A stretch of 64,000 nucleotides of DNA, taken from positions 600 through 64,599 of the forward strand of contig MWST01000032.1 of NCBI GenBank assembly GCA_002050235.1, written 5' to 3'. Origin of the DNA: Polyangiaceae bacterium UTPRO1 (GTDB lineage: Bacteria; Desulfobacterota; Binatia; UTPRO1). Under the pieces are notes generated by a model. The model did not search any database. It worked only from the letters and a program-made list of their open reading frames with translations, and was not told the DNA's origin. Shown piece by piece: positions 24,185 to 58,552 of this stretch (the stretch's first letter is position 1; each line of letters starts with the position of its first letter). Made by a program: the position numbers and the translations under genes.

Positions 24185-24211
24185 CGGCTCAACGAGGGCA
24201 ACGGAGCGCCA

Positions 24212-34464: not shown

Positions 34465-34573
34465 GGGGCCTACACTCTAGCGGCGATCGCGGCGCCGTGC
34501 ACCGCCGGGAATGACGGGCGCAGCACGGCGCGCTTGACCGATTCGGCGCCCTGTACCAATAGGAGCGGCCAAC

Positions 34574-39512: not shown

Positions 39513-40928
39513 GTGACGGGAGGTGGTGTGCACGCGGAACGACGATCACGGCTTTCGGCGCTCGAACGGGTGCTGCGCATCTTCACGGACATCCGCGCCG
39601 GCGAAGGGCCGACGAGCCTGGCGCTCTTCGCCAACGTCTTCCTGATCCTCTGCGCCTATTATTTCATCAAGCCGCTGCGCGAGAGCTGGATCGCCGTGTC
39701 GGACATACGCGGGCTCTCCAAGATGGAGGTCAAGGCCTACTCGAGCTTCGGACAGAGCCTGCTGCTCGCCGGGATCGTCTCGTACTACGGCCGCCTCTCG
39801 GCGCGGTGGCCGCGCCGGACGCTGATCACGCGCGCGACGCTGGCCTGCATGGCCTGCCTCGTCGTCTTCTGGATGCTCCAACCGGGGTTCATCCTCGCCA
39901 ACCTGCCGGGCTCGGGCATCGCCTTCTATCTCTGGGTCGGCATGTTCGGCGTCTTCATCGTCGCCCAGTTCTGGGCCTTCGCGGCGGACCTCTACGCCGA
40001 CGAGCGCGGCCAGCGGCTACTGCCGCTGATCGGCATCGGTGCGACCGCAGGCGCCGCGGCGGGCTCGTTCTTGACCGAGCAGCTCGTCCGCAGCCGCTGG
40101 GTCGATAGCGGCATGCTGCTGCTCCTCGCCAACGCTCCGCTCGCACTCTCGATCGCGCTCACCCGGATCGCCGATGCCCGCGGCCCGCTCGGCACGCCCA
40201 AGCACGAGCGCGTTCGGCCGACGGCCCCGGCCGCCGCCGACGGCCACGGAGCTCTGGTCTTCGTGCTGCGGCACCGCTACCTCTTCGCCGCCGCGCTGGT
40301 CGCCCTCCTCACCAGCTGGGTGAACACCAACGGCGAGAACCTCCTCTTCCGCGTCGTCCAGGAGGGCCTCGAGCAAGAGCGCCAGGCCAAAGGCATCACC
40401 GATCCGGCGGCGACGATCGGCTTCGTCCGCGCCGGCACCGCCGCTTTCTACGGCGACTATTACTTCTGGGTGAACGTGAGCGCCCTCGTGCTGCAGGCGA
40501 TCGTAGCGTCGCGCCTCCTCAAGTACGGCGGCTTCGGCGTGATCTTCCTCATGCTGCCCACGATCGCCCTCGTCTCCTACTCCTCCATGGCGATCATCCC
40601 GCTGCTATGGATGGTGCGGCTCATGAAGATCGCCGACAACAGCGTCGACTACTCCATCAACAACACCGCCCGACAGGTGCTCTGGCTACCGACGACCGCC
40701 GCCATGAAGTACAAGGCGAAGCCGGTGGTCGACTCGCTGTTCGTACGCTTGGGCGACGGCTGCGCCGCCCTCACGGTGCTGGTGGGCGTACAGGTCCTGC
40801 ACCTCTCGACGCGGCATTTCTTCTACGTGACCGTGGCGCTCGTGCTCCTGTGGTTGGTGATGGCGGCGGGCATCGTCCGCGAGCATCGGCGGCTGGTCGC
40901 GGCGCGCTCCGGCACCGCGGCTGCCTGA
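39513..40928 (+). CDS. TLC (ATP/ADP translocase, Npt1/Npt2)-like MFS-type membrane transporter
   Basis: 471 aa and about 11-12 TM segments. The N-terminal motif FLILCAYYFIKPLRESWIAV resembles the ILFNYxILRxxKDxLVV motif of TLC-family carriers. The family assignment is from memory. Confidence 0.65.
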   Translation: MTGGGVHAERRSRLSALERVLRIFTDIRAGEGPTSLALFANVFLILCAYYFIKPLRESWIAVSDIRGLSKMEVKAYSSFGQSLLLAGIVSYYGRLSARWPRRTLITRATLACMACLVVFWMLQPGFILANLPGSGIAFYLWVGMFGVFIVAQFWAFAADLYADERGQRLLPLIGIGATAGAAAGSFLTEQLVRSRWVDSGMLLLLANAPLALSIALTRIADARGPLGTPKHERVRPTAPAAADGHGALVFVLRHRYLFAAALVALLTSWVNTNGENLLFRVVQEGLEQERQAKGITDPAATIGFVRAGTAAFYGDYYFWVNVSALVLQAIVASRLLKYGGFGVIFLMLPTIALVSYSSMAIIPLLWMVRLMKIADNSVDYSINNTARQVLWLPTTAAMKYKAKPVVDSLFVRLGDGCAALTVLVGVQVLHLSTRHFFYVTVALVLLWLVMAAGIVREHRRLVAARSGTAAA

Positions 40929-40934
40929 CCGGTC

Positions 40935-43900
40935 GTGGCGCGCTCGGCCGCACCCGTCACCCGGCCGCTCTCGGTCGAGCCCGGCGAGGGGCGCGTCCTC
41001 GGCTGGAGCGCCCTGGTCCTCTTCGCCGTCTCGTGGGCCTCGATCTCGGTCGCCAACGTCGCCGACACGCTCTTCTTGAAACGCATCGGCGTCGATCGCC
41101 TGCCCTGGGTCTTCCTCGGGAACTCCGTGCTCCTCACCTTCACGACCTTCGCGGTCGGACGCCTCGCGGTCCGCTGGGAGTCGCGCACGCTGCTCGTGGC
41201 GACGCTCGCGGGACTCGGGCTGGCGCTGGTGCCGCTCTGGCTGCTGGTCGCCGCCGACGTCGGCAGCGCCTTCGTGCTGCTCGTGCTGGCGGCGAAGCAG
41301 CTCGACGCGATCGCGCTCGTCGTCTTCTGGACCGCCGTCGGAAGCCTGGTGAGCGCGCGCCAGGGCAAGCGGCTCTTCGCGCCGATCAGCGCCGGCGGCA
41401 CGTTCGGAGCTGTCGCCGGCAGCTTCGCCTCGGGCTGGCTCGGCCGAACGTTCGGCATCGCGACGCTCCTGCCGTTGGCGGGCATCACCATGGCGCTCGC
41501 CGCAGCAGCGGCTGCGCCGCTGCTGCGCCTGCGGCGCCCGCGCTACTACCGCCCCGCGCCCGTCCACGCGCTCGCCGACGTCGCCGGCCGGCGGTTCGGC
41601 CCGCTGTGGCGCACCAGCGCCCTCTTCCGCGTCCTCGCGCTGACCTCGCTCCTGGCCGGCATCCTCGGCCCGATGCTCTATTTCGAGCTCGCCTACGTCG
41701 CCGACCGGGCCACCTCCGGCCACGGCGGCGAGCAGCGCCTCCTCGACCTCTACGCGCTCTTCCGCGGCTGGCTGAACGTCGGCGTCATGGTGATCCAGGT
41801 GACCGGTACGTCCGCAGTCTTTCGCCGCCTCGGCGTGCCGCTGGCGGCGGCCCTCTCGCCCGTGATCTACCTCCTCGGACTCGTCGGGCTGAGCGTGCGG
41901 CTGAGCCTCGCCGCCGGCATCGCCGCGGTCGCCGGCGCCAACCTGCAGGACCACGCCGTCTACGATCCCGCGCAGCGCATCCTGGTGACCCTATTCCCCG
42001 AGCGCGTGCGCGCCGCCGTGACGACGCTGATCGACGGCCCCGTGAAGCGGGCCGGCGGCCTGATCGGAAACGTCGTCATCATCATTGCCCTGGCCGTCGG
42101 TACTCCCGCCTGGGTCGGCTACGCCGGCCTGCCGATCGCGGCGGCGTGGCTGGCGGCGGCGCTCGTCCTCTGGCGCCTCTACCCGGCCCTGCTCCTGCAG
42201 GTAGCGACCGCGCGGCGCAGCGACTTCGAGGAACCGCCGCCCCTCACCGAGTTGCTCGACGGCGGCACGGTGCGGCTCCTCGAGCAGAGCCTCGGCGGCA
42301 GCGACCTCGAGCGCTGCCGCGCCGCCTGCGACGTCGTCGTCGAGGCGGCTCCGCGCCGCGCCGTGCGCGCGCTCGCCCGCGCGCTCGGCGCCGCACCGGC
42401 AGCGCATCGGCCGCTCCTCGTCGCCGCCCTGCAGCGCGTGCTCGGCGAGGACTCTGCCGCGGCGCTCGTTCACGACGAGAGCGCGCGCCTGCTGGCGGCG
42501 CTCCTGGCCGCGCCCGCGGGCCTCGGCGCCCTCGATCGCGCCCACCTCGTGCAGGCCTACGGGCGCCTCCTCGGCGCCGCCGCCGCGCAGTCGCCGGCGC
42601 TGCGCACGGCGCTCGCCGACCCGCATCCCGCGGTCGCGCTCGCGGCGCAGGCGGCCCTCGCCCGGGCCGGCGCCGCCGCGAACACGGCGCTCGACGCCGC
42701 CCTCTCCGCTGCGTTCGCGCACCCTGACGCCGACGTGCGCCGGATCGCGGGCGAAGAGCTCGGCATCGAGCTCCGCCGGCCGGCAGCGGACGGCGCGGCG
42801 TGGGCGGTCCGGCTCGAGCAGTTGCTGGCCCGCCTCGAAGCGCCCGCGGACCGCGCCCACGCCGCCGCGACCCTGGCCGCGGCCGCAGCCGTCCACGGCG
42901 CGCGCCTCCGTCCGCACGCGGCGCGCATCCTCGTCCATCGCCGCGACGACGATCCCGCCGTCCGCATCGCCGTGCTCGACGTCATCGGCCGCGCCCGGCT
43001 CCTCGAAGCGGCGGAGAGCCTCGTCGATCATCTGACCGCCGCCGACCCGCGCGAAGCGGCGGCGGCGTGCGCGGCGCTGCGCGCCCTCGGTGCCGACGCC
43101 GTCGACGTCCTCCTGCACACGCTCCGCTGCGGCCGTTTCCGCGCCCGCGAAGCGGTGCGATCGATCCTCGTCGGCCTGCCGATCGATCCCGAGCGCCTGC
43201 GGGTGCTCCTCGACCGCGAGGTCGAGGTCATGCGCCGCCTGATCCTCCGCACCGAAGCGCTGCGCGTCGGCGGAGTCGCAGACGCGGTGCTGCAACGCCT
43301 CCACGAGCAGCTCGACGAGAGCTCCCACACGGCGGTAGTGCTGATCGCGACGGCGCAGGACGACGAGCGTCTGGCGCGCATCGGCCGCCTCCTCGGGCGA
43401 ACGCACGGCACGCGCGACCGCGCCCTCGTGCTCGAGGCCCTCGAAGCGCTCCTACCGCAGCGCGAGCGCGAGCGCCTGCTGCCGCTGCTCGATGACGCCA
43501 ATCCGGGAGCTCGCGCACGTCGCGCCATGGAGGCGCTCGGGCGGCCGCTGCCGACGTTCGCGGAGGCGGTTGCCGAGGTGCTCGCCTCCGGCGACGGGCT
43601 CGGTCGGGATCTCCTGCGCGGCACCCTGCCGGCGCCGACGCTGGCGGACCTCGGCGGCGACGTGACATACGAGCGGCCGGACCAGCGTATGACCCACGTC
43701 GACATGATCCTGGCGCTCCGCCGGCTCGACCTCTTCGCGGGGCTGACGACCCGGCAGCTCTCCGAGCTGGCGCGGGTCGTCGCCGAGTGCCGGGTCGCGG
43801 CGGGCGAGACGATCGTGCGCGAGGGCGAGCCGGCCACGCAGATGTACTTCATCGTCGCCGGCGCGGTGCGGGTCACCAGGGAGGGCGCGGCGGTATCGGC

Positions 43901-44147
43901 TCTCGGCCCGGGCGAGTTCTTCGGCGAGATCGCCGTGCTCGACGGCGAGCAACGCTCGGCGTCGGTGACCGCCGACGGCCCCGTGCACCTCCTCCGCCTC
44001 GATCGCCACGACCTCTTCGAGGTCATGGAGGAGCACCCGGCCATAGCGGTCGCCATCTGCCAGACGCTCGGCCGCCGCATTCGCGAGCTCCTCGACGAGC
44101 GCGCCGACGCGGCGGCGGCTCCGGGATCGCCGCAGAGCCGCTTCTAG
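40935..44147 (+). CDS. TLC-like membrane domain fused to HEAT-like repeats and a C-terminal cyclic-nucleotide-binding domain
   Basis: 1070 aa, with a GTG 6 nt after the upstream stop. The N-terminal ~420 aa are polytopic. The middle has Ala/Leu-rich HEAT-like repeats (DPHPAVALAAQAAL, HPDADVRRIAGEEL, DDDPAVRIAVLDVIG). The C-terminal cNMP fold is FFGEIAVLDGEQRSASV. Confidence 0.75.
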   Translation: MARSAAPVTRPLSVEPGEGRVLGWSALVLFAVSWASISVANVADTLFLKRIGVDRLPWVFLGNSVLLTFTTFAVGRLAVRWESRTLLVATLAGLGLALVPLWLLVAADVGSAFVLLVLAAKQLDAIALVVFWTAVGSLVSARQGKRLFAPISAGGTFGAVAGSFASGWLGRTFGIATLLPLAGITMALAAAAAAPLLRLRRPRYYRPAPVHALADVAGRRFGPLWRTSALFRVLALTSLLAGILGPMLYFELAYVADRATSGHGGEQRLLDLYALFRGWLNVGVMVIQVTGTSAVFRRLGVPLAAALSPVIYLLGLVGLSVRLSLAAGIAAVAGANLQDHAVYDPAQRILVTLFPERVRAAVTTLIDGPVKRAGGLIGNVVIIIALAVGTPAWVGYAGLPIAAAWLAAALVLWRLYPALLLQVATARRSDFEEPPPLTELLDGGTVRLLEQSLGGSDLERCRAACDVVVEAAPRRAVRALARALGAAPAAHRPLLVAALQRVLGEDSAAALVHDESARLLAALLAAPAGLGALDRAHLVQAYGRLLGAAAAQSPALRTALADPHPAVALAAQAALARAGAAANTALDAALSAAFAHPDADVRRIAGEELGIELRRPAADGAAWAVRLEQLLARLEAPADRAHAAATLAAAAAVHGARLRPHAARILVHRRDDDPAVRIAVLDVIGRARLLEAAESLVDHLTAADPREAAAACAALRALGADAVDVLLHTLRCGRFRAREAVRSILVGLPIDPERLRVLLDREVEVMRRLILRTEALRVGGVADAVLQRLHEQLDESSHTAVVLIATAQDDERLARIGRLLGRTHGTRDRALVLEALEALLPQRERERLLPLLDDANPGARARRAMEALGRPLPTFAEAVAEVLASGDGLGRDLLRGTLPAPTLADLGGDVTYERPDQRMTHVDMILALRRLDLFAGLTTRQLSELARVVAECRVAAGETIVREGEPATQMYFIVAGAVRVTREGAAVSALGPGEFFGEIAVLDGEQRSASVTADGPVHLLRLDRHDLFEVMEEHPAIAVAICQTLGRRIRELLDERADAAAAPGSPQSRF

Positions 44148-46081
44148 CGGACCCGGACTCTCCCGGCGTCGACGTCGGCGAGGAGCGCGGCGATGCGCTG
44201 CTGCAGCCGTCCGATCTCCCCGGCGGTGAGGCCGAGCTGGATCTTGCCGCGGGCGATACGAACCCCTTTGGCCGGATCCAGAGGAGCGGTGCGGCGCCCG
44301 AGCCGGAAGATGCCGGCCGCGTCGACGTCCATGTCGAAGAGCGTCGACAGGCGCTCGACCTCCTCCGGCGGCAGGGCGCGGAGCCGGGCTACGGGATCGG
44401 CGCGGAGCCAGGGGACGCGGAGCGTGTTCCAGTTGCGTACGAAGAAGTTCCACGGGAACCCTTCGAAGGCGATGCCGTTGTCGATCGAGAATACGCGCGG
44501 ATCCTCGGGGTCGGTGGAGATCAGGAAATTGCCGTCGCGGCCGTCGCGATGGTCGATGAGATAGGTGAGCAGGTTCATGTCCGCGAGGTGCGCGCCGTAG
44601 TGCGGATCGCGCTCGACGCGCTCGTCGATGTCGTCGTTCAGGTCGTCGGCGACCGCCACGTCCTCCATCCACGCGGCGAAGAGCCCGAGGACGCAGCGGC
44701 TGCCGGGGAGAGTCGGCTTCGCGTCCTTCAAGACGCGGTAGACGTCGACGGGGATGCAGCGCGGGACCGTCGTCGGCACGACGTAGTCGTCCTCGTCGAA
44801 GATCCAGCGTTGTATGGCGTAGGCGGCGACCTCTTTGCGCGGCGAGTTGTTCCAGCCGTCGAGCGTCGGCCTCGGGAACGGCTTCCACTTGACCTTCATG
44901 CTCCGGCCGTCGGCGAAGCGCACCGTGAACCGCGACGCCCCGGTGACGCCGGCGCCGGCGCGCTTCACCTCGCTGATCTCGAAGTCGTCGAGGGCGAGCT
45001 TCAGATCGAGCACCGACGGCGCCATCGGCCAGTTGCGCGGCAGCGCCTTGCCGGCCTGCCGCTGCGGTCCGAATAGATGCTCGGCGGCGCGATGGGCGAG
45101 CTGCGCGATCAGCTCGCCGCGGTAGGCCGGCGTCGCCTCGGTGAATACCGCGAGCGCGAACTGGTGGCCGTCGGGAGCGCGGACGATACCGGCGTCGGCG
45201 TAGTCGGGACCCCAGGTGCCGCTCTTCGCGTAGACCTCGAGGCCCGGAATGCGCGCCGCGCCGCCGGCGATCCGGCGCGCCAGGTGCGGCTGCTGCTTCG
45301 GATCACGCTTCATGCGGCGGCGGACGGCGGCGGAGTCCTCGGGCGTGAGCGCGCGATCGGTGGCGAGGAGCCCCAGCAACTTCGCCGTACCGATCGCCGT
45401 CATCGCCTGGCGGTTCGGATACTCGCCGTCGGCGCTGACGAGACCGCCGGCGACGCCATGGTCGCGGAGGAACTGCCGATCGCGACCGACGAGATCGCCG
45501 CCGCCGTCGTAGGTCGGATTGACGCAGTGGAGGTCGTCGATGCCGAGGCTCTGGAGCCAGCGCTTCACCACCTGCCGGCGCTCGCGGTAGCGCGCGTACT
45601 CGCCGGGCGGCAGCTCCGGACCCGGCGCGGTGTCGGTCAGCCGGGCGAAGACCTTCTGCGTCGCTCGATTGCTGCTCTCGCGGATCATCGCCTCGAGCTC
45701 GGCATCGAGCCCGGGATCGATGACCAGCCGCCCTTCCTCCTGCCAGCGATACGCCGCCATCAGGTAGACGAACTTGACGACGCTCGCCGGATAGATCGGC
45801 CGATCGCCGCCGGCGTGCGCGAGCCGTGGCGGCCCGTCGCTCGGAAGGTCGAGGAGTGCGACGCCGACTGCGGCGCGCCGCAGCGCCGGGTCGAAGTCGG
45901 CCAGCGTCGCCATCGTCCGCTCGAGGAAGGTCTGCAGCTCGGAGGCGGGCCGGATCGTCGCCAGCCATTGGCGTGCCGCCGCGGCCGGCGGCGGCGGCGC
46001 CGCCGCCGCGCCCCGCGCGCACCCGACGACCAGCAGCACCACCGCCATCCGCGACCAAGAGCGCATGCAGCTCCGCACCAT
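44144..46081 (-). CDS. Lipoprotein: class A beta-lactamase-fold serine hydrolase fused to a type II PI3/PI4-kinase-like domain
   Basis: 645 aa from ATG 46081, with the lipobox LLVVGC. The N-domain has SVVK (SxxK), SSN (the SDN position) and KSG (KTG). The C-domain has KVKWKPF, RKEVAAYAI, IDHRDGRDGNFLI (catalytic-loop-like) and IDNGIAF (DFG-like). Confidence 0.7.
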   Translation of the reverse strand: MVRSCMRSWSRMAVVLLVVGCARGAAAAPPPPAAAARQWLATIRPASELQTFLERTMATLADFDPALRRAAVGVALLDLPSDGPPRLAHAGGDRPIYPASVVKFVYLMAAYRWQEEGRLVIDPGLDAELEAMIRESSNRATQKVFARLTDTAPGPELPPGEYARYRERRQVVKRWLQSLGIDDLHCVNPTYDGGGDLVGRDRQFLRDHGVAGGLVSADGEYPNRQAMTAIGTAKLLGLLATDRALTPEDSAAVRRRMKRDPKQQPHLARRIAGGAARIPGLEVYAKSGTWGPDYADAGIVRAPDGHQFALAVFTEATPAYRGELIAQLAHRAAEHLFGPQRQAGKALPRNWPMAPSVLDLKLALDDFEISEVKRAGAGVTGASRFTVRFADGRSMKVKWKPFPRPTLDGWNNSPRKEVAAYAIQRWIFDEDDYVVPTTVPRCIPVDVYRVLKDAKPTLPGSRCVLGLFAAWMEDVAVADDLNDDIDERVERDPHYGAHLADMNLLTYLIDHRDGRDGNFLISTDPEDPRVFSIDNGIAFEGFPWNFFVRNWNTLRVPWLRADPVARLRALPPEEVERLSTLFDMDVDAAGIFRLGRRTAPLDPAKGVRIARGKIQLGLTAGEIGRLQQRIAALLADVDAGRVRVR

Positions 46082-46171
46082 AGCCGGAAGCGCACCGCAC
46101 GTCAGCGGCGCCAGCGGTATCTCGGGCCGGCGAATTCCGGTACAACCCGGCCGCTCATGGAGGGATTTGCG

Positions 46172-49100
46172 ATGGAGCGGCGGCGACGCGTGCTGGCGGT
46201 GGTCGTATTCTCGGGAATGCTCGCCGCGGGCGGCGCCGCGGCGGCATTCGAGGCGCCGGCGCTGTCGCCGGGACAGCAGAAGACCCTGAAGCAGAACTTC
46301 GCGCTCTGTCTCGGCAAGCTGAAAGGGCCCTATACCGAGAACTTCTGCCTCTGCCGCGACGGGCGCAAGCTCCCTGTCCAAGGGCCGAACGGCGCGGTGC
46401 GCATCCCCTGTCCGAACCCGCTGTTCTGCGCCGCCTACCGCGCTCCCTGGGCCGAGGCCCTCGCCCATGAGCGCATGTACATCGCCAACATCTTCTCTCG
46501 CGACGAGCATCTCTGGTCGACGTTCCCGAACCACCACGACCTCGTCCGCGGCTACGTGCTCGAGAAGTACTTCGTCGAGACGCACCCCACCCACAAGCTC
46601 GCGCAGATGAAGCAGTACCGCGGACTTTCCAGCGCCGAGGAAGAGCTTCCGGCAGCGCTCGCGTTCTTCGAGAAATATCTCGGCGGCGACGAATTCGACG
46701 GCGACCGCCACTTCCTCCTCGCCTACGAGCTGCAGCGCCGCTACTTCGCGCGCGACGACGTCGGCCAGGTGCAGAAGATCCGCGACCTGGCAGTACGGAT
46801 CGAGCGCGCCAAGGCCGACTTCAAGCCGCTGAAGGACGCCGTCCACAACCAGGTCTCGGCGGGCCTGATCCCGAGCCTCGTCGCCTACCGCGCCAAGCTG
46901 CCTGCCGGCGCGACCCGCGATCAGCTCGACGATCTCGTCGGCGAGATCCGCAAGCTCACGAGCCTCGACGAGAGCGCGCTCGCGCCGCAGGTCGGTGCGA
47001 TCGCCGATCCGGCCGTGCGCGCGGCGCTGACGAAGCTCCTGCCGAACCCGTCGACGCCGCCCGTCGAAGCGGCGACCGCGCTCGGGACGATGATGGCGAC
47101 GGCGCGGCGCGCCGTCGGCGAGAGCACGACCGCGCCCGCCGACAGACGCCGCCTCGTCGACCTCGACATCACCGCCGCGCAGGTGCTGCAGCAGCGCGGC
47201 AGCGCCGCTCTCGCCGGCCCCGGCACGACGGCGCAACAGCACGTCGCAGTGCTGGGGGCGCTCTCCGCGGCCGCCTACGGCGCCGGGCTCCTGAACGCGC
47301 GCGAGTACGAAGCGGCGAGCACGGCGATCCGCGAGCTCGGCGCCGACGCCGAGCCCGATCGCGCCGACTTCGCGCGCCGCCTGCGCGTGGCGAAGCGCGT
47401 CGTCGAGTGGGCCCAGGGCAACGCCGAGCTCGCCTTCGCCGAGGTGATGGCGCCCTGGACCTTCCTCCTCCCCGACGTCGCCGGCATCCGCGACGACGTG
47501 CTGCGCGGGTCGCCGCTCATCCTCTACGCCGAGGTCGTGAACCGGCTCGACGACTTCGCCGCCGGCGGCGAGCGGCCGAAGCATCGCTTCTTCGGCACCG
47601 CCGTCGAGGGCGACGTCCGGGCGCTGAATCCCGGCCTCGCCTACGGTCGACTGCGCGTCGGCCCCAAGGACCACGGCTACACGCGCGACGACATCGTGGC
47701 GCTCACGGAGACGCCCGCCGACCTCGAGCCGGCAGCGGGCATCCTGACGCAGGGCGAGGGCAACGTGCTCTCGCACGTCCAGCTCCTGGCTCGCGCCCTC
47801 GGCATCCCCAACGTCGTGCTCGGCTCGCGGGCGTTCGACGTCCTGCGCATGCACGACGGCAAGGCGGTGGTGCTGGTCGTGACCCCCGGCGGCCGGGTCG
47901 TCCTCGAGGAAGCTTCGCGCCTGTCGCCCGAGATCCGCGAGGCCTACGCCGAGTACACGCGCAACGAGACCCGCCGCACCGCCGGCGCGCTCGGCGGCGG
48001 CGCCGGACGCCTCCACATCGATCGCGCCAAGATCGACCTCGGCCCGAAGCTCCCCATCGACCTCAGAGACGTGCGCCGCAAGGACTCGGGCGTGTTCTGC
48101 GGCCCCAAAGCGGCATTCCTCGGCGAGCTGAAGTCGATCTTTCCCGACCACGTGGCGCGCGGGATCGTGGTGCCGTTCGGCGCCTACCACGCGCACTACT
48201 CGCGGGCGGCAGTGATCGTGCCCGCAGAGCTGCGCGGCGATAACGTCGCCGTTCCCGGTGAGCCTCTCTCGGCCTTCGTCGAGCGCACCTACCATACGTT
48301 CTTCGCCGAGCTCGTCCCGTCGGGAAAGAGCGAGCGCGAGCTCTCCGCCTGGATCGAGCCGCGCCTCGCCGTCGTCCGCCACACCATCCGCCAGACACCG
48401 CTCGATCCGGCCCTGCGCCAAGCGATCCGCGACGGACTGGCGAAGAACGGGCTCCTGCGCGGCGGCGACGACACCGCCGGCTGCTTCGTGCGCAGCGACA
48501 CCAACGTCGAGGATCTCGACAATTTCAACGGCGCCGGTCTGAATCTCACCCTCTTCAACCGCCGCACGCTCGACGACATCTATTCCGGCCTGGCCGAGGT
48601 GTGGGCCTCGCCTTTCCAGTTCCGCTCGTTCTCGTGGCGGCAGACGCTGATCGACGACCCGGTCTGGGTGCTGTCGTCGGTCGTGATCCTGGAGTCGGTG
48701 CCGTCGGAGAAGTCCGGCGTGCTGGTCACCGCCGACGTCAACGACGGCGCCCCCGGAAAGATGCTGGTCGCGACCTCGGAAGGCGTCGGCGGCGCCGTCG
48801 ACGGCACCTCGGCCGAGACCCTGCTCTGGTCGCCGCAGGGCGTCGAGCTGGTCACGCTCTTCAAGTCGCCGTGGCGGACCGCACTCGACGCCGAGGGCGG
48901 CAGCAAGATAGTTCCGTCGACCGGCCGCGACACCGTGCTCGAGCCGGCGGAGCTCACGCAACTGGTCGCCGCCGGCAAGAAGATCGGCGCCGAGCTGCAG
49001 CCGGTCCGCGACGCCGCGGGAAAACCGAAGCCCTGGGACATCGAGTTCGGCTTCACCGGCGGCAAGCTCTGGCTCTTCCAGTGCCGCCCGTTCCTCGGCA

Positions 49101-49198
49101 ACGACGAGCTCCGCAACATCCCGGCGCTGGCAGCACTGGACAGTACGCCGAGCGGGACGCGGGCGCAGCGACTCTCGCTCGCGCAGGTGCTGCGGTGA
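46172..49198 (+). CDS. Signal-peptide protein with PEP-utilizer phosphohistidine swivel domain followed by PPDK_N-type ATP-grasp domain (dikinase-like)
   Basis: 1008 aa, with GGAGGG 7 nt upstream of ATG 46172. The signal is VVVFSGMLAAGGAAAA, followed by a 6-Cys N-region. The swivel motif is GILTQGEGNVLSHVQLLARALGIPNVV (His codon 47774-47776). The ATP-grasp motifs are GPKAAFLGEL, VRSDTNVEDLDNFNGAGLNLT, SGVLVT and WDIEFGFTGGKLWLFQCRP. There is no PEP/pyruvate TIM-barrel domain. Confidence 0.75.
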   Translation: MERRRRVLAVVVFSGMLAAGGAAAAFEAPALSPGQQKTLKQNFALCLGKLKGPYTENFCLCRDGRKLPVQGPNGAVRIPCPNPLFCAAYRAPWAEALAHERMYIANIFSRDEHLWSTFPNHHDLVRGYVLEKYFVETHPTHKLAQMKQYRGLSSAEEELPAALAFFEKYLGGDEFDGDRHFLLAYELQRRYFARDDVGQVQKIRDLAVRIERAKADFKPLKDAVHNQVSAGLIPSLVAYRAKLPAGATRDQLDDLVGEIRKLTSLDESALAPQVGAIADPAVRAALTKLLPNPSTPPVEAATALGTMMATARRAVGESTTAPADRRRLVDLDITAAQVLQQRGSAALAGPGTTAQQHVAVLGALSAAAYGAGLLNAREYEAASTAIRELGADAEPDRADFARRLRVAKRVVEWAQGNAELAFAEVMAPWTFLLPDVAGIRDDVLRGSPLILYAEVVNRLDDFAAGGERPKHRFFGTAVEGDVRALNPGLAYGRLRVGPKDHGYTRDDIVALTETPADLEPAAGILTQGEGNVLSHVQLLARALGIPNVVLGSRAFDVLRMHDGKAVVLVVTPGGRVVLEEASRLSPEIREAYAEYTRNETRRTAGALGGGAGRLHIDRAKIDLGPKLPIDLRDVRRKDSGVFCGPKAAFLGELKSIFPDHVARGIVVPFGAYHAHYSRAAVIVPAELRGDNVAVPGEPLSAFVERTYHTFFAELVPSGKSERELSAWIEPRLAVVRHTIRQTPLDPALRQAIRDGLAKNGLLRGGDDTAGCFVRSDTNVEDLDNFNGAGLNLTLFNRRTLDDIYSGLAEVWASPFQFRSFSWRQTLIDDPVWVLSSVVILESVPSEKSGVLVTADVNDGAPGKMLVATSEGVGGAVDGTSAETLLWSPQGVELVTLFKSPWRTALDAEGGSKIVPSTGRDTVLEPAELTQLVAAGKKIGAELQPVRDAAGKPKPWDIEFGFTGGKLWLFQCRPFLGNDELRNIPALAALDSTPSGTRAQRLSLAQVLR

Positions 49199-50859
49199 CG
49201 GCGCACACCCGGCGCGGCGGCGGGCGGCTTTGGCGTCTGCTCGCCGCCGCCGCGGCCGCTCTCACGTTCGTCACGCTCCGCGTCGCGAGCGCGGCCCTCG
49301 ACGCCGGCGGCGACACCGCCTGGGACGGCAGCGAGCCGCCGCCCGGGGTCTACTTCCACTGGTACGAGCCGTCCTTCTACGCCGGCTTCGCGCCCCGCAC
49401 CCAGGATCCGAGTCGTCTCCACATCGAGCTCGGGCGCGGCAACCAGGTGCGGGTAACGGTCGTCCTCGGCGACGCCGAGCTCGACGCCTACCTGGGCGAC
49501 CTCCAGGCGCGACGCGCGGTCGTCCAGGAGCTCGTCGACAGCCGGATCATCACCCTCAGCACCAACCGCGCCTGGGAGCGCTTCACCAGCGCCCTCGACG
49601 ATGCCGGCGTCGCGGCGGCGCTGGCGGCGCGGGCGGAGACGAAGCCCGAGGCCTGGCGGGCGCGGAGCCTCGCGGTGATGACGGCGCTGAACCCCGGGCG
49701 CGTGTTCCGGATCGCTATGCCGCTCGCCGCGGTCGCCGCTCGCTGGCGGCCGCTGCTGGCACGCCTCGACGGCAGCGATCCGATAGAGCGCCTCGACGCC
49801 GCCAACGCCGCGCTGCCGGGTCGCATCGTGCTCGAAGAGCTGACACCGCCGCTCGGCGCCGCGCTCGATCGCTGCCTCGATCCGGCGCGCGGCCCAGAAA
49901 GCGCGAAGCCCGCTTACGAGCTCTGCGTCAAGGACTTCATCGAGACCGCGAGCGCGCGCCGCTACCGCGTCGTCGACGGCGCCGTCGTCGCCCACGAGTT
50001 TACCGCCATCTACCCCGCCGGCACGGTCGAGGGCTCGACGACCTACAGGGGCGAGAAGCTGCCGGACTTCGGGGTCACCGGCGTCTGGCCGCTCATCCGC
50101 CGCACCAATGGCCGCGGCATTCTCGGGATGGTCGACTACCTGTCGCCGAATCCCGGCTACGGCTTCATCCCCATGCTGCCCTACCAGTACGCCGGCGGCA
50201 TCACCTACAACGCCTTCCACAATGCCGGCGTGCGCTGCCAGTTGAACGGCACGCCGTTCCTGCCGAGCGCCTGGCGACAGGTCGCCGGCGAGCGCAGCGG
50301 CAAGCCGTACGAGAACCTCTGGATCGTCGGCCGCGGTCCGACGTCGCACGGCTGCACGCGGCTGCCGTCAGGCCACATGAGCGAGCTCCGCCAGATCGTG
50401 CCGTCGGAGTCGGACGCGCTCCTCCAGGTGAAGACCTATCGCGATCTGCCCGGCTGCTACGACGTCTTCGACATCGACGGCGACGGCGCCCCCGAAGTGA
50501 TGGGCGTCCAGTACTACCTCGCGTACCGCAGCAACGAGCACACGCCGGTGAAGGCCTGGGTGAGCAACCGGCGCGAACCCTTCTACCGCTGGCTCTACGG
50601 CAACAACGTCGTTCTCGGACCGGTCGGTGCGGCCCGCCTCCAAGAGGTGCCGGTCTGCCGCTTCGCCGGCAAGAAGGCGGCGGAGCGCGCGGTGCTCCGC
50701 GACCTGCCGCTCTACGAAGCCAAGTACCAGCCCGAGCAGATACAGTTCTTCCGTAGCAAGGCGGCTCCGGACAGCGCTGCCGGAGTCGAGCTCAACCGGG
50801 AGTTGCGCAAGGTCGGCGCCGGACACGTCCTCGAGCGCTCGCGCCTGCTGCTGCGCTGA
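49195..50859 (+). CDS. Exported protein with C-terminal L,D-transpeptidase (YkuD)-like catalytic motif, paralog 1
   Basis: 554 aa from a GTG that overlaps the upstream stop (GTGA). It has a hydrophobic N-terminal signal-like segment and a ~380-aa unassigned N-region. The catalytic motif is GRGPTSHGCTRLPSGHMSELRQIV (Cys codon 50353-50355). Confidence 0.7.
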   Translation: MTAHTRRGGGRLWRLLAAAAAALTFVTLRVASAALDAGGDTAWDGSEPPPGVYFHWYEPSFYAGFAPRTQDPSRLHIELGRGNQVRVTVVLGDAELDAYLGDLQARRAVVQELVDSRIITLSTNRAWERFTSALDDAGVAAALAARAETKPEAWRARSLAVMTALNPGRVFRIAMPLAAVAARWRPLLARLDGSDPIERLDAANAALPGRIVLEELTPPLGAALDRCLDPARGPESAKPAYELCVKDFIETASARRYRVVDGAVVAHEFTAIYPAGTVEGSTTYRGEKLPDFGVTGVWPLIRRTNGRGILGMVDYLSPNPGYGFIPMLPYQYAGGITYNAFHNAGVRCQLNGTPFLPSAWRQVAGERSGKPYENLWIVGRGPTSHGCTRLPSGHMSELRQIVPSESDALLQVKTYRDLPGCYDVFDIDGDGAPEVMGVQYYLAYRSNEHTPVKAWVSNRREPFYRWLYGNNVVLGPVGAARLQEVPVCRFAGKKAAERAVLRDLPLYEAKYQPEQIQFFRSKAAPDSAAGVELNRELRKVGAGHVLERSRLLLR

Positions 50860-50882
50860 CGACCTGCCGCCAAGGAGATCCC

Positions 50883-52616
50883 ATGCGCACGACGACCAGC
50901 ATCATCGCAGCACTGGCGCTGTTTTCCTGGATGCCCGGCACGGCGGCGGCCAAGGACTTCGCCGCCCCCCGGCTCGCCGGCGATCGCGCCGCGCCCGGGC
51001 TCATGGTCGAGGAGCCGCCGCGCTACGGCGTCTTCTACGACGCTCCGGAGCCGTCGTTCTACACCGGCTTCGCCCCGCGCACGCAGGACCCCGCCGCTCT
51101 CCACATCCATCTCGGGCGCGGCAACCAGCTGCGGGTGACCGAAGTGCTGTCGGACGCGGTCGTCGACGAGTACGCGCGCGACCTCGCCGAGCGCCGCCGC
51201 ACCTACCGCGCGCTCGTCGACTCCGGCCGGCTGCAGCTGACGCAGAACACCGCCTTCGAGGCGTTCGAACGCCGGCTCGACGCCCTCGGCCTCGACGACC
51301 TGGCGAGCGCGGAAGGAGCGCTGGCGCCCGACGCGCTCCGCGCCCGCAACCTCGACCTCATCGAGACGCTGAATCCCGGACGCGTCTTCCGGATCGCGAT
51401 CCCGGTGCGGAAGCTCGCCGCCCGCTGGATCGGCGAGCTCGACCGCATCACCGGCGGCGCCCGCGCGCGTCTCGACGCAGGCCGCAGGCTCGACCTCGCG
51501 AACGCGCTCCTGCCGACGCGCCTCTGGCTCGCCGACCTCCCGGCCGACGCCGCCGCCGCTCTCGACGATCTCGTCCGTCGCGCCCCCGCCGATGCCGGTG
51601 ATACGGCCGCTGTCGACGCCCTCGTACCCGCCTACGGCGCCCTCCTCGCGCGCGTCGGCGGCGGCCGCTATCCGGTCCGGGACGGCGTCGTGCGCTTCGC
51701 GGAGTTCACGGCGATCTACCCGGTCGGTACCGTCGCCGCGTACACGACGTGGCGGGGCCGGACGATCCCGCTGTATCCGACGCCGGGCCGGCGCGCCCTC
51801 ACCACCCATCAGCGCTCCCTGGTCGCCGACCACATCCCGGTCGAGGACTCGTACAGCTGGTCGCCGTGGCTGCCGTACATGCACGTGACGCCGACGATGC
51901 ACAACGCCATCCACACGCCGTGGTGGAAGATGGGTCCGGGCGACGCCGGGTTCCTTCCCGCGTCGTGGCGGCAGGTGGCCGACGGCAGCCGCGACGGCGC
52001 GCCGTTCACGAAGCTCTGGCTGCTCTCCCGCGGCCCCATGTCGCACGGCTGCACGCATCTGAACACCGGCCACATCGCCGAGCTCCGCCAGATCCTTCCC
52101 GCCGACGGCAACCGCCTGTACGACGTCGAGGTCTTCCTCACCCGCTCCGAGCATTACGACGTCTTCGACATCGACGGCGACCTCGTGCCCGAGGTGATGG
52201 GCGTACGCTACTTCATCGCCTACTCGCTGATCGCCGGGAAGCCGGATCGCCTGCGGGTGAAGAACGAGCGCCGGGCCTTCTACGACTGGCTCTACGGCGG
52301 CGATCTCCAGTGGCAAGGAGACCAGGGCGTCTTTCACGACGCCCACGAAGCCCGCTTCAGCGGCCGCGACGCGCGCGAGGGTCGAGGCTACGCGCGCATC
52401 CTGCTCCGCGAAGCGCCCTACCAGCCGGAGACCGTGCAGTTCTACCGCATGATCGACATCCCCTTCGCTCGCGCGCTCCGCCAGGTCGGGCTTCACCGGC
52501 GCGCGCTCGAAGTCCCCGATCGGCGGCAAGCCGCGAACGCGCCGATGATGCGCGGCGACGCCGGCGGCGCGGGCCGCTACGCGCAGCCGTTGTCCGCACC
52601 CCGGCGCAGCCGCTAG
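50883..52616 (+). CDS. Exported protein with C-terminal L,D-transpeptidase (YkuD)-like catalytic motif, paralog 2
   Basis: 577 aa, with AGGAG 5 nt upstream of the ATG. It has a clear Sec signal (IIAALALFSWMPGTAAA). It is colinear with paralog 1 (PSFYTGFAPRTQDP, LNPGRVFRIAIP). The catalytic motif is SRGPMSHGCTHLNTGHIAELRQIL (Cys codon 52050-52052). Confidence 0.75.
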   Translation: MRTTTSIIAALALFSWMPGTAAAKDFAAPRLAGDRAAPGLMVEEPPRYGVFYDAPEPSFYTGFAPRTQDPAALHIHLGRGNQLRVTEVLSDAVVDEYARDLAERRRTYRALVDSGRLQLTQNTAFEAFERRLDALGLDDLASAEGALAPDALRARNLDLIETLNPGRVFRIAIPVRKLAARWIGELDRITGGARARLDAGRRLDLANALLPTRLWLADLPADAAAALDDLVRRAPADAGDTAAVDALVPAYGALLARVGGGRYPVRDGVVRFAEFTAIYPVGTVAAYTTWRGRTIPLYPTPGRRALTTHQRSLVADHIPVEDSYSWSPWLPYMHVTPTMHNAIHTPWWKMGPGDAGFLPASWRQVADGSRDGAPFTKLWLLSRGPMSHGCTHLNTGHIAELRQILPADGNRLYDVEVFLTRSEHYDVFDIDGDLVPEVMGVRYFIAYSLIAGKPDRLRVKNERRAFYDWLYGGDLQWQGDQGVFHDAHEARFSGRDAREGRGYARILLREAPYQPETVQFYRMIDIPFARALRQVGLHRRALEVPDRRQAANAPMMRGDAGGAGRYAQPLSAPRRSR

Positions 52617-52627
52617 CAACGGCGGGC

Positions 52628-53818
52628 GTGACCGCCGCCGACCGCCGCCTAGTCGCCGTCCTCGGGCTCGCGATCTTCTTCGAGGGCTACGGGCGCATGC
52701 TCGTACCCGTGGCCCTCGCCTTCATCGGCACCGATCTCGGGGCAGCGCCCGACGCGCTCTCCTACGCGCTCGCCACGATCGCACTCGGCTCTTTCGGCGT
52801 GCTGGCGCTCGGTCCGGTCGCCGACCGCCTCGGGCGCCGCCGGCTACTGCTCGCGAGCATCATGCTCTTCGCGCTCTTCGGTGCCGGTACGGCTCTCGCG
52901 ACGTCGCTCGCCGGGCTCGTCGCCTGGCAGCTCACGGCGCGGGTCTTTCAGGAGAGCGCGCTCTTCACCGCCGCCGTGCTGGCCGCCGAGGAAGCGTCGC
53001 CGCCGAGCCGCGCCGCGGCGCAGGGCTGGCTCGGGACGGTGAACGCGCTCGGCGCCGCCTTCGCCGCGCTCCTCCTCGCCGCCATCGGCGTCGTGCCCGG
53101 CGGCTGGCGCGGGCTCGCCTGCGTCAGCCTGGCGCCGCTCGCGCTCGCTCCGCTGCTCCACCGCCACGTACCGGAAAGCCGCCACTGGCTCACACACAGC
53201 GGACCGCGCGTCGCCTTCCCGCCGCGGGCCTGGCGCGGGCGCGTCGCCGCGACGCTCGTCGTGGTCGCGCTGGCGATGAGCTACGACGTCGCCGCATTCG
53301 CGTTCGCGACCTACGTTCCCGTCGCCCGCCACGGTTGGAGCGCCGCCCAGGTGAGCGCGATGTTCATCGGCGCCGGCGCGTGCGGCCTGCCGGGATGGTC
53401 GGTGGGCGGCTTGCTCGCCGACCGCTACGGTCGCCGGCCGATCGCCGTGATCTTCCTGCTCGGGCTCACCGCCGCCGAGCTGCTGTTCTTCCTCGGCGGG
53501 CGGCGCGCGCTCTGGCCGGGCTTCGCGGCCATGGTCTTCTTCCAGGGCGGCAAGATGACGATCATCCGCGCCTGGGCCGCCGAGCTCTTCCCGACCAGCT
53601 TTCGCGGCGCCGCCGCGGGGTGGCTCACCGCCGCGGGCGCGGCCGGCGGCATGGGCGGGCTCGCGGCAGCGGGGGCCCTGGCTCGCGCCGCCGGCGGCAT
53701 CGACGTCGCACTCGCAATCGGATCGAGCGCCGGCGTGCTCGCGGCCGCCGCCGTCTTCGCCTGGCTGCCCGAGACGCGCGGCGTCCTCGCCGCGCCCCGG
53801 GTGCCGGAAGCCGGGTAG
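52628..53818 (+). CDS. MFS transporter
   Basis: 396 aa from GTG 52628 and about 12 TM segments. The loop 2-3 motif GPVADRLGRRRLL and the second-half motif LADRYGRRP are typical of MFS transporters. Confidence 0.8.
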   Translation: MTAADRRLVAVLGLAIFFEGYGRMLVPVALAFIGTDLGAAPDALSYALATIALGSFGVLALGPVADRLGRRRLLLASIMLFALFGAGTALATSLAGLVAWQLTARVFQESALFTAAVLAAEEASPPSRAAAQGWLGTVNALGAAFAALLLAAIGVVPGGWRGLACVSLAPLALAPLLHRHVPESRHWLTHSGPRVAFPPRAWRGRVAATLVVVALAMSYDVAAFAFATYVPVARHGWSAAQVSAMFIGAGACGLPGWSVGGLLADRYGRRPIAVIFLLGLTAAELLFFLGGRRALWPGFAAMVFFQGGKMTIIRAWAAELFPTSFRGAAAGWLTAAGAAGGMGGLAAAGALARAAGGIDVALAIGSSAGVLAAAAVFAWLPETRGVLAAPRVPEAG

Positions 53819-55553: not shown

Positions 55554-57194
55554 TCAGCCGAGCACCGCGGCCACGATCGTCCGGGCCTCGGCGACGATCG
55601 CCTCCAGATGGCGCTGGTCACGGAAGCTCTCGGCGTAGATCTTGTATATGTCTTCGGTCCCCGACGGGCGGGCGGCGAACCAGCCCTCGGCGGTGACGAC
55701 TTTGAGCCCGCCGATCGCGGCGCCGTTGCCCGGCGCCTGCGTCAGCTTGGCGACGATGGGCTCGCCGGCGAGGGTGGCGGCGGCGACGGCCGCGGGCTCG
55801 AGCTTGGCGAGGCGCGCCTTCTGCGCCGGCGTCGCCGGGGCATCGATGCGGGTGGAGCGCGGCATGCCGAGCTCGCGGGCGAGCGCGGCGAAATGCTCCC
55901 CGGGATCGCGGCCGGTGCGGGCCGTGATCTCGGCGGCGAGGAGGCTCGGGACGATGCCGTCCTTGTCGGTCGTCCAGACGCTCCCGTCCATGCGCAGGAA
56001 CGAGGCCCCGGCGCTCTCCTCGCCGCCGAAGCCGATGGCGCCGTCGACGAGGCCGTCGACGAACCACTTGAAGCCGACCGGCACCTCGACGAGCGTGCGT
56101 CCGAGCCGCGCGGCGACGCGATCGATCAGGCTGCTGCTGACCACGGTCTTGCCCACGGCGGCGGTCGCCGGCCATCGCGGCCGCTCGGCGAAGAGGTAGG
56201 CGACGGCGACGGCCAGGTACTGATTGGGCTCGAGGAGGCCGCGGCTGCGCGTCACGATGCCGTGGCGGTCGGCGTCGGCGTCGCAGGCGCAGGCGACGTC
56301 GAAGCGATCCTTCAAGCCGACCATCGGAGCCATGACGTAGGGCGACGACGGGTCCATGCGGATCTGGCCGTCCCAGTCGACCGCCATGAAGCGGAAGGTC
56401 GCGTCGATGACGTCGTTGACGATCTCGAGATCGAGTCCATGCCGTTCGCCGATCGCCTGCCAGAAGGCGAGGCTCGCGCCGCCGAGGGGATCGACGCCGA
56501 TGCGGACCTCGGCATCGCGGATCGCCGCGAGATCGACGACGGCGGGGAGGTCGGCAACGTAGGCGTCGAGATAGTCGTGGCGGTGGGTGGTCGCGGCGGC
56601 GCGCGCGCGCGGATAGGGCGTCCTCGGAACGCCGCCCGGGCCGTCGGCGATCAGAGCGTTCGCCCGGCGCTCGATCCAGGCAGTGGCCGCGCTGTCCGCC
56701 GGGCCGCCGTGCGGCGGGTTGTACTTGAAGCCGCCCGAGCGCGGCGGATTGTGGGACGGCGTCACCACGATGCCGTCGGCGCGGCCGCGCGTCCGGCCGC
56801 GGTTGTAGGTGAGGATGGCGTGCGAGACGACCGGGGTCGGGACGTAGCCGCCGCGCGCGTCGATCATCGTCTCGACGCCGTTCGCGGCCAGCACCTCGAG
56901 GGCGCTCGCGAAGGCCGGCTCCGAGAGCGCGTGGCTGTCGCTGCCGATGAAGAGCGGACCGTCGGTGCCCTGCTCCGTGCGGTATTCGCAGATGGCCTGG
57001 GTGATGGCGAGGATGTGTGCCTCGTTGAACGAGGCGTCGAGCGACGAGCCGCGATGACCGGAAGTGCCGAAGGCGACCCGCTGGCTCGCCACCGCCGGGT
57101 CGGGGCGCTCGGTGTAATATGCGGTCACCAGCTTCGGGAGGTCGGTGAGGATGGAGACGGGGGCCGGTTTTCCGGCGAGCGGGCTCACGGGCAT
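55554..57194 (-). CDS. pgm: Phosphoglucomutase, alpha-D-glucose phosphate-specific
   Basis: 546 aa. It has the active-site motif FGTSGHRG, the metal loop CDADADRHG, the sugar loop GGEESAG, and the C-terminal RPSGTED. Confidence 0.92.
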
Positions 57195-58424: not shown

Positions 58425-58552
58425 GTCGGCATGTGCCAGCGGCGGCACGCGGCAGCGCGGCCGTCGTCAGAGTTGGCGCGCGATGATGCCATAGGTGGCC
58501 GAGCGCGCGCGCCGCGACGCGATACGGCAAGCGCCATGAACTGGTCCATGGC

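Follow-up and report, generated by a model that had tools for sequence, protein, structure and literature searches.

Envelope biology works on the premise that the periplasm contains no ATP, and this is the usual reason given why the Tol-Pal, TonB, Lpt, Lol and BAM systems draw on energy from the inner membrane. Kinases acting outside the cytosol are known from the eukaryotic secretory pathway, where enzymes of the Fam20C family work in the lumen with ATP brought in by a membrane antiporter. In the bacterial envelope, L,D-transpeptidases (e.g., E. coli LdtD) cross-link peptidoglycan together with DD-carboxypeptidases (PBP5). All known relatives of the dikinase considered below work, to our knowledge, in the cytoplasm or in the plastid stroma. 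The potato glucan-water dikinase StGWD1 is built from an acceptor domain, a His domain and an ATP domain, in this order (PMC13553574). Fusions of an NTT carrier domain with HEAT repeats and a cyclic-nucleotide-binding domain (NTT-HEAT-cNBD) are widespread in free-living bacteria, and their description leaves them without a function (Major, Embley and Williams, 2017; PMC5381601). Here we describe a gene cluster of Polyangiaceae bacterium UTPRO1 (Desulfobacterota; Binatia) in which such carriers stand beside predicted exported enzymes with ATP-dependent folds. It lies in a stretch of 64,000 nucleotides, hereafter the window (assembly GCA_002050235.1, contig MWST01000032.1, positions 600 to 64,599, forward strand). 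Genes A to E of the cluster encode a lipoprotein that joins a serine-enzyme fold to a kinase-like domain (A), a dikinase (B), two paralogous exported proteins (C and D) and an MFS transporter (E); genes up1, up2 and up3 encode the carriers (Table 1). Our preferred interpretation, to which we give slightly less than an even chance, is that the cluster forms a periplasmic envelope-modifying enzyme module fed with ATP by its own dedicated nucleotide carriers.

NTT-like carriers linked to the exported enzymes

A preliminary description of this DNA had set the limits of the cluster at 44144-53818. The genes within these limits are present, whereas the conserved neighbors at 39513-44147 had been left out. 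The main oversight was that up1, up2 and up3 are, by profile and pairwise matches, members of the TLC/NTT ATP/ADP-translocase family. The product of up1 shows about 12 hydrophobic segments in its hydropathy profile, and matched Pfam TLC (PF03219) with E = 8.8e-4 (18.6 bits) and TIGR00769 with E = 5.5e-5. That of up3 scored 21.0 bits against Pfam TLC, exactly on the cut-off of 21, and matched up1 (phmmer, 2e-60) as well as the same carrier genes of related loci. In up2, about 10-12 membrane spans are followed by HEAT repeats and a C-terminal cyclic-nucleotide-binding domain (cNMP_binding, 5.2e-22; HEAT_2 and MFS_1 weak; cross-match to up1, 8e-7), in which the phosphate-binding cassette FGEIAVLDGEQRSAS is intact. 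Among aligned carrier relatives, 22 of 25 matched Pfam TLC (best 6e-22), and those of strain NaphS2 and of a gammaproteobacterium scored 77 and 71 bits against the cut-off of 21. A role of this region in anti-phage defence was considered and rejected, PADLOC having matched the cyclic-nucleotide-binding domain of up2 only and no defence system.

A scan of one genome per species for full-length relatives of B returned at least 575 genomes, distributed over Binatia, Myxococcota, Desulfobacterota (including the isolate NaphS2), Methylococcaceae, Lysobacterales, Halothiobacillaceae, Bacteriovoracaceae, Holophagae and Hyphomicrobiales (including the isolate Microbaculum sp. FT89). Among the genomes listed, the cluster is confined to diderm lineages. 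Six-frame open reading frames (ORFs) of 76 fetched loci were searched with the window proteins, and counts were taken from the 39 loci in which B was flanked by 5 kb or more on either side and which represent at least five phyla; carriers were counted within 10 kb of B. Relatives of C or D adjoined B in 31 of the 39 loci, a gene for the beta-lactamase-like domain of A (A_N) was near B in 26, an up1-like gene in 25 and an up2-like gene in 22, and at least one NTT-like carrier was found in 27. The conservation of the neighborhood, which the preliminary description had proposed as a check, is thus borne out. The kinase domain of A and the MFS gene E were each near B in 3/39 loci. By our own estimate, which is not the result of a tool, about three carriers in a 5-Mb genome would give a chance of roughly 1-2% of finding one within 10 kb of B.

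Membership holds while gene order varies among related loci. The window-type order is up1-up2-A-B-C-D, with A reversed and divergent from B. In most Binatia a reversed A_N gene diverges from B-C-(D), behind which up2 and up1 follow in reverse orientation; Desulfobacterota, including NaphS2, have B-up1-D-up2 on one strand, one locus (L060) has C-D-up1-up2 on one strand, and Microbaculum sp. FT89 has B then C.

Kinase genes related to the C-terminal domain of A show a carrier linkage of their own. Stand-alone lipoprotein kinase relatives have a TLC carrier gene 14-21 bp downstream in locus L086 and in three assemblies (L087-89), with no B nearby (Table 1), and in L085 an unfused kinase gene stands directly between an A_N-like gene and an up2 relative. 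The contexts of two other stand-alone kinase genes (L090 and L091) held no carrier. That two unrelated exported ATP-dependent folds each recur beside NTT-like carriers is the strongest argument that these carriers serve the exported enzymes. Upstream of the kinase-carrier units there is an extracytoplasmic function (ECF) sigma factor gene on the opposite strand, with one small gene of unknown function in between.

The exported dikinase B

The preliminary description had read B as a signal peptide followed by a phosphohistidine swivel domain and a PPDK_N ATP-grasp, and the profile matches and alignments agree with it; relatives keep all the signature motifs. The signal peptide comprises residues 1-25, its cleavage site (AXA before F) is invariant in 13 aligned relatives down to 60% identity, and in the same alignment it is followed closely by a segment with conserved cysteines (C46, C59, C61, C80 and C86). 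Relatives have no conserved twin-arginine motif; Tat export was therefore rejected and B is predicted to be exported via Sec. The N-terminal domain (residues 26 to ~500, ~480 aa) matched nothing in Pfam or among PDB sequences, even with a profile of relatives down to 20% identity. The swivel domain (~505-590) carries the motif TQGEGN-x-LSH535-VQLLARALGIPNV, with TQGEGN-x-LSH535 invariant in relatives and His535 encoded at 47774-47776. Its PEP-utilizers match (4.6e-4, 20.2 bits) is just under the cut-off of 23.1 in the window copy, and PF00391 is recorded for several relatives. The ATP-grasp (~636-975, at 48077-49096) matched PPDK_N with E = 2.8e-21 and 76.6 bits against a cut-off of 27, and it is complete, with the PEP-synthase signatures GPK-x-A-x-LGELK, RSDTNVED...FNGAG and DIEFGF...LFQ-x-RPF, which show little or no change among relatives.

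Matches to phosphoenolpyruvate (PEP) synthase and rifampin phosphotransferase were confined to the ATP-grasp. As to PEP synthase and pyruvate, phosphate dikinase (PPDK) proper, B has no PEP-utilizers_C match, its domain order is reversed, and the NCBIfam equivalogs scored far under their cut-offs. The predicted order in B (acceptor, His, ATP) is that of glucan-water dikinase.

The best 120 relatives of B are 60-84% identical to it over the full length, and the named sources of the nearest ones are metagenome assemblies of Candidatus Binatia or "Deltaproteobacteria bacterium". A second subfamily, B2, shares ~33% identity with B (subfamily B1) over the full length and has a signal peptide; its matches are PPDK_N 2.4e-29 and PEP-utilizers 6e-6 (26.1 bits). 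B2 was found in gammaproteobacteria, and two Binatia-type loci contain it as a second copy. The place of C/D behind it is taken by another exported protein, conserved and ~420 aa long, of the Beta-lactamase2 family (SVGK/SSN/KSG). In L064 the B1 and B2 genes are adjacent and B2 directly adjoins up1; elsewhere B2 lies 1-8 kb from an A_N-like/NTT pair.

The lipoprotein A and proteins C, D and E

All four enzymes were said to bear export signals, and they do: A has a lipobox (LVVGC21, Ala at +2), B, C and D have signal peptides, and these features are conserved across the families. Residues ~60-340 of A (45041-46018) matched Beta-lactamase2 (PF13354; 2.5e-14, 53.6 bits, gathering score 22) and contain the active-site motifs SVVK100, SSN136 and KSG286 in order; the SxxK/SxN/KSG set is shared by gammaproteobacterial relatives of this domain. 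The class A beta-lactamase equivalog NF033103 gave 18.5 bits against a cut-off of 200, and the closest solved sequence was the DD-peptidase-like PBP-A Tll2115, a weak match (E = 0.014). Relatives of A_N have a hydrophobic leader at every N-terminus.

The kinase-like domain of A comprises 298 residues (348-645, at 44147-45040). Taken alone, it had PI3_PI4_kinase (PF00454) as its sole Pfam match, over the catalytic loop (E = 0.14, 12.5 bits vs. 27.1). An exhaustive search with these residues returned 430 representative clusters, and the relatives are mostly stand-alone proteins of ~340 aa with lipoprotein leaders. In an alignment of 40 sequences, E70, D166 and D187 were invariant and K51, H164, N171 and N188 nearly so, the catalytic residues falling in the prevailing H-R-D...N and D-N-G pattern; 19 of the 40 matched PI3_PI4_kinase (best 1.6e-5). 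The best PDB match of the family profile was the PI3-kinase Vps34 (E = 0.03), ABC1 and Fam20C were also weak matches of the profile or its relatives, and no PI4KII structure was among the PDB matches. We assign the domain to the PI3/PI4-kinase type at superfamily level, with its predicted catalytic core intact. The fusion of a Beta-lactamase2-fold serine domain to a kinase-like domain therefore stands as previously described, whereas the name "type II PI4-kinase" is too specific for the data. ATP-dependent folds predicted to lie outside the cytoplasm beside penicillin-binding-type folds, as the preliminary description had them, are thus retained here, and the arrangement is conserved.

Proteins C and D, which are 43% identical, had no Pfam or NCBIfam match over their full length. 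They have 613 relatives, and the 120 listed are without a Pfam domain and called "hypothetical protein" or unnamed; C-type and D-type genes are separable in related loci. The signal site of C (AxAALD/E) is kept in 28 aligned C-type relatives, and the N-terminus of D reads MRTTTSIIAALALFSWMPGTAAA, followed across the site by KD. Both contain an SHGC motif (S384-C387 in C, at 50344-50355; S387-C390 in D, at 52041-52052), and C390 is the sole cysteine of D. Of the nucleophile motif of L,D-transpeptidases (S-x-G-C-x-R/H), the Ser, Gly and Cys never vary in a 15-sequence alignment of the catalytic region, and the second position is H, S or Q; in E. coli the motif is SQGC in LdtA, SHGC in LdtB, and SSGC in LdtC and LdtD. 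With four catalytic fragments, YkuD (PF03734) was the sole match in two and the best of two in a third (E = 0.007-0.04; 15-17 bits vs. 23.4). A model of C residues 270-554 from a 109-row alignment had a pLDDT of 87.3; in a full-length AlphaFold model from a 30-row alignment the catalytic half stayed below 50, and Foldseek was uninformative. Apparent C/D matches in gammaproteobacterial loci from a stop-to-stop ORF profile were an artefact of out-of-frame read-through of B and were discarded. C and D are thus paralogs with SHGC, as had been noted, and their assignment to the L,D-transpeptidases (YkuD), for which the motif and three sub-threshold signals speak, is too weakly supported to be adopted. 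We regard them as a new family of exported Cys enzymes that may be distantly related to YkuD. For E, the reading as an MFS transporter was correct (MFS_1, 5.8e-31; the aromatic-acid/H+ symporter subfamily was far under its cut-off), and its occurrence in 3/39 loci makes it a lineage-specific accessory, outside the core.

Gene structure and surroundings of the locus

The window has 70-73% G+C, so raw ORF lists are crowded with spurious frames. The coding frame was chosen by a plot of third-position G+C (GC3) per frame, with one frame per stretch. The five genes of the preliminary description were recovered at their coordinates, and public gene calls (GCA_013328895.1, JAANMX010000207.1) agree, the sole difference being a start of A five codons later. 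The divergent spacer between A and B was read directly in the sequence, and reaches up to 105 bp if alternative starts are used. A scan of this spacer found no sigma-70-type consensus and no terminator, a result of little weight at 71% G+C; the promoter and terminator scan downstream of E was also empty. The translational coupling of B and C was seen as a GTGA overlap of stop and start at 49195-49198, and B and C overlap by the same 4 nt in two further cases, a genome at 75% identity and a contig at 63%. The gap between up1 and up2 is 6 bp.

Table 1. Features of the window and of related loci (locus handle before the position where the feature lies outside the window).
Feature	Position	Strand	Description
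up1	39513-40928	+	471 aa, single-domain carrier, NTT/TLC (ATP/ADP translocase) family
up2	40935-44147	+	1070 aa, NTT-like membrane domain (~residues 1-430), HEAT, cNMP-binding
A	44144-46081	-	645 aa, lipoprotein, Beta-lactamase2-fold and kinase-like domain
Divergent A/B intergenic region	46082-46171	.	90 bp
B	46172-49198	+	1008 aa, predicted exported dikinase
C	49195-50859	+	554 aa, exported protein, unannotated family
D	50883-52616	+	577 aa, paralog of C, signal peptide
E	52628-53818	+	396 aa, MFS transporter
up3	58487-60094	+	535 aa, third NTT/TLC-like carrier, 4.7 kb downstream of E; possible member
Glucan metabolism genes	6795-11380, 21524-24211, 34538-36148, 55554-57194		isoamylase-like (CBM48 and alpha-amylase), GlgB, 895-aa glycosyltransferase of family GT2 (maybe OpgH-like), MdoG/OpgG (1e-189), phosphoglucomutase
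Kinase and TLC carrier two-gene units	L087:10001-12565; L086:5876-8345; also L088, L089		stand-alone kinase gene with carrier gene
Beta-lactamase2-family gene after B2	L071:12908-14344; L074:9195-10598	+	gammaproteobacterial, among L067-L079

The genes up2 and A are convergent, and their tails, including the stop codons, overlap by 4 bp at 44144-44147. The G+C peak of the window (0.767) is at 42000-44000, and first-position G+C is also very high over the HEAT part of up2; a long antisense ORF at 41991-43451 imitates coding statistics, most likely as a by-product of base composition.

Many genes of the window concern glucan metabolism, GlgB and GlgX-like genes among them (Table 1). Its MdoG had no match in any related locus, for which reason periplasmic glucan, one of the targets put forward in the preliminary description, is not supported and the glucan link was rejected. 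The phosphoglucomutase and a PAS histidine kinase were rejected as members of the cluster, as they recur in the closest relatives only, and none of the glucan genes was counted as part of it. A phosphotriesterase-family gene at 2163-3170 on the minus strand (PTE, 1.3e-59) has no relation to the cluster.

In NaphS2, the genes B-up1-D-up2 are followed on the plus strand by genes for an outer-membrane efflux protein (OEP, 1.4e-60) and a HlyD-type membrane-fusion protein (L045:9465-12232). In the 75%-identical complete genome (L003:2306-9807), four genes lie between the up2 relative and A, encoding a Y_phosphatase3 protein, a Metallophos and DUF2238 protein, a DUF2332 protein and one protein without an assigned function; a phosphorylation cycle is a conceivable context for the two genes of phosphatase type.

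Proposed function and alternative explanations

How the genes are built, which domains they encode (with catalytic motifs intact), the conservation of the export signals and that of the linkage to NTT-like carriers are established; we infer the function of the module from this genomic context. In the proposed mechanism, up1, up2 and perhaps up3 would sit in the inner membrane, pass ATP out and take the spent nucleotide back in. As NTTs are exchangers and the cell makes its own ATP, the gradient would favor ATP exit and ADP entry. This linkage offers a concrete answer to the question of where periplasmic ATP would come from. The cytoplasmic tail of up2, with HEAT repeats and a cyclic-nucleotide-binding domain, would gate the nucleotide flow, and the latter domain suggests a regulated ATP supply. 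After Sec export B would fold in the periplasm and bind ATP in its C-terminal ATP-grasp; by homology, the beta-phosphate would pass to His535, with release of AMP and Pi, and from there to an acceptor on the N-terminal domain. Such a phosphohistidine relay is the mode of glucan-water dikinase, PEP synthase and rifampin phosphotransferase. The kinase-like domain of A would be a second ATP user in the window lineage, and its product ADP is the classical NTT counter-substrate.

The weakest steps concern the substrate. The acceptor would belong to the envelope, with peptidoglycan or its stem peptides as the likeliest candidate, as penicillin-binding-fold serine enzymes are steadily nearby, a Beta-lactamase2-fold protein accompanying both B subfamilies, and as C/D accompany the B1 subfamily. 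The serine enzyme of A and the Cys enzymes C and D may cut or transfer that same substrate, and phosphorylation may activate a carboxylate or mark the polymer for remodeling. One may speculate that a stem-peptide carboxylate is activated for transfer by C/D, or that an insoluble polymer is phosphorylated to control its remodeling, by analogy with starch and glucan-water dikinase. The envelope module had been one of the two readings of the preliminary description, and it is kept here without the periplasmic glucan target: Sec and lipoprotein export, the cysteines of B, the restriction to diderms among the genomes listed and the inner-membrane carriers are all consistent with it.

Several points weigh against our interpretation. 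All the evidence is genomic. Periplasmic ATP should leak out through porins, and the dikinase yields AMP and Pi while classical NTTs swap ATP for ADP; no periplasmic adenylate kinase was seen. The up1 of the window is under the Pfam TLC cut-off (18.6 vs. 21 bits), 12 of the 39 full-flank loci have no carrier within 10 kb, including that of Microbaculum sp. FT89 (L054), and NTT-HEAT genes occur also in lineages outside the sample. The acceptor domain of B has no match in Pfam or among PDB sequences. The link to peptidoglycan is weak: YkuD is sub-threshold for the C/D fragments (E = 0.007-0.04), hhalign of the C/D catalytic region with E. coli LdtA-D aligned only 26 columns (P = 0.0025), and the model of C 270-554 had no significant PDB match in Foldseek, where the top hit was the L,D-transpeptidase 4lpq (E = 0.24, TM 0.15-0.20). 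In addition, 45 residues separate the Cys from the closest nearly invariant His on its N-terminal side (H342 in C), as against 17-19 in the E. coli enzymes. According to the survey of Major, Embley and Williams (PMC5381601), all characterized NTTs import nucleotides, and the substrates of the free-living branch are not established.

The importing direction of all characterized NTTs (PMC5381601) also speaks for a role in uptake or salvage. A compound from outside the cell or from the periplasm would then be processed by the exported enzymes, and the NTT-like carriers would take up either nucleotides or what the enzymes make; B perhaps runs in reverse or draws on the ATP of other cells. The linkage data give a functional tie and not a direction, and the dikinase chemistry of PPDK is reversible. 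We nevertheless consider such a role unlikely, given that the free-living methanotrophs, sulfate reducers and Binatia live where ATP is scarce, that no nucleotidase or nuclease is conserved in the cluster, and that an importer would leave the tie of two different exported ATP-consuming folds to the carriers unexplained. It is similarly doubtful that the ATP-type domains do without turnover outside the cell, as binding modules, pseudo-enzymes, pre-charged proteins or users of another donor, with carriers that move non-nucleotides or act as partners regulated by cyclic nucleotides. Reviews call the periplasm ATP-free, up1 and up3 are at or below the TLC cut-off, and the substrates of the NTT branch are likewise not established in that source; yet down to 20-35% identity there is little or no change in any catalytic motif of the ATP-grasp, in the swivel His or in the kinase core, which is unusual for pseudo-enzymes. 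The leader of B is moreover of Sec type and not of Tat type, so that B would cross the membrane unfolded and could not be pre-loaded.

Two further explanations are less probable. The components could form a periplasmic drug-inactivation set, made of a beta-lactamase-fold hydrolase, a rifampin-phosphotransferase-like dikinase, an aminoglycoside-kinase-like domain, beta-lactam-insensitive transpeptidases and an MFS pump, for which ATP outside the cytoplasm would still be required. Relatives with a role in resistance are known for each of the component folds, the fold of A is that of class A beta-lactamases, the ATP-grasp of B matched rifamycin phosphotransferase models (NF041857, 6e-12) and an MFS gene is adjacent. 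We hold this reading to be quite improbable: that MFS gene occurs in only 3/39 loci, the score of A is 18.5 against 200 on the class A beta-lactamase model, B has no rifampin-binding domain and a different domain order, and no mobile-element context was seen. Furthermore, the 60-84% identity of the best 120 relatives of B, mostly from Binatia and "Deltaproteobacteria" metagenomes, and the conserved B-C translational coupling are as expected of a housekeeping function. Exported effectors acting inside an ATP-containing target cell, the other reading of the preliminary description, have very little probability in our view and are disfavored by the data, although all the enzymes carry export signals and some hosts are Myxococcota or Bacteriovoracaceae. 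A is a lipoprotein and so are most relatives of its kinase domain, no genes of type II or type VI secretion systems or of contact-dependent systems are conserved nearby, and the hosts include non-predatory methanotrophs, sulfate reducers and Hyphomicrobiales; the conserved link to carriers of the producer's inner membrane would have no role. Of the four rivals, it is the one that fits the lipid anchors, the taxonomic spread and the inner-membrane carriers least well.

Returning to the envelope module fed by its own carriers, we would extend it, with a little more reserve, to a wider hypothesis that we consider plausible though short of an even chance: in many free-living diderms, NTT-type carriers, including NTT-HEAT-cNMP proteins, may export ATP under cyclic-nucleotide control and power an exported dikinase and lipoprotein kinases which, together with beta-lactamase-fold and Cys-His enzymes, would phosphorylate and remodel the envelope. 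If true, this would overturn the rule that periplasmic chemistry is never driven by ATP, and the NTT and NTT-HEAT-cNBD proteins of free-living bacteria would gain a function that can be tested, a question open since 2017. It would also define three unannotated families (C/D, the N-terminal domain of B and the lipoprotein kinases), and point to a so far unrecognized phosphorylation of an envelope component. Two cultured hosts of B with C or D would allow experiments, NaphS2 (B, up1, D, up2) and Microbaculum sp. FT89 (B, C).

Comparison with known systems

The component superfamilies are known, whereas C/D, the N-terminal domain of B and the lipoprotein kinases have no annotated family. Full-text literature searches returned no description of the module, in line with the statement of the preliminary description that no described pathway has this composition, and a number of the reviews retrieved state once more that there is no ATP in the periplasm. 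We know of no described system with this combination.

With glucan-water dikinase B shares the domain order; it has no CBM45, and no similarity between the N-terminal domains was detected. With PEP synthase, PPDK and rifampin phosphotransferase it has the ATP-grasp and the phosphohistidine swivel in common, while the order of the domains differs, and the TIM barrel for PEP or pyruvate of the first two is absent from B. The Sec signal peptide and the conserved N-terminal cysteines set B apart from these dikinase relatives.

C and D resemble the L,D-transpeptidases LdtA-D in being exported, in having S-x-G-C followed by a helix, and in their place beside an SxxK/SxN/KSG serine enzyme. They differ from them in the sub-threshold YkuD match, the His-Cys spacing, a large N-terminal domain without counterpart, and the coupling to a dikinase.

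As for the carriers, up1 and up3 resemble single-domain members of the NTT/TLC transporters and up2 has exactly the NTT-HEAT-cNBD composition (PMC5381601). The characterized transporters bring host ATP or nucleotides into parasites and plastids, whereas the flow proposed here would be outward, to the cell's own periplasm. A linkage of NTTs to exported ATP-dependent enzymes is not mentioned in the consulted passages of that source.

A known periplasmic ATP-hydrolyzing enzyme provides a precedent for ATP as a periplasmic substrate; its fold is unrelated, it has no dedicated carrier, and the energy is not used for synthesis. The Fam20C kinases would share the logic of the present module, that of kinase-fold enzymes outside the cytosol relying on a nucleotide carrier. 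Three of the 40 relatives of the kinase domain of A were weak Fam20C matches, no homology beyond the kinase superfamily is apparent, and the setting of the Fam20C kinases is the Golgi, whereas that of the module proposed here would be the bacterial periplasm.

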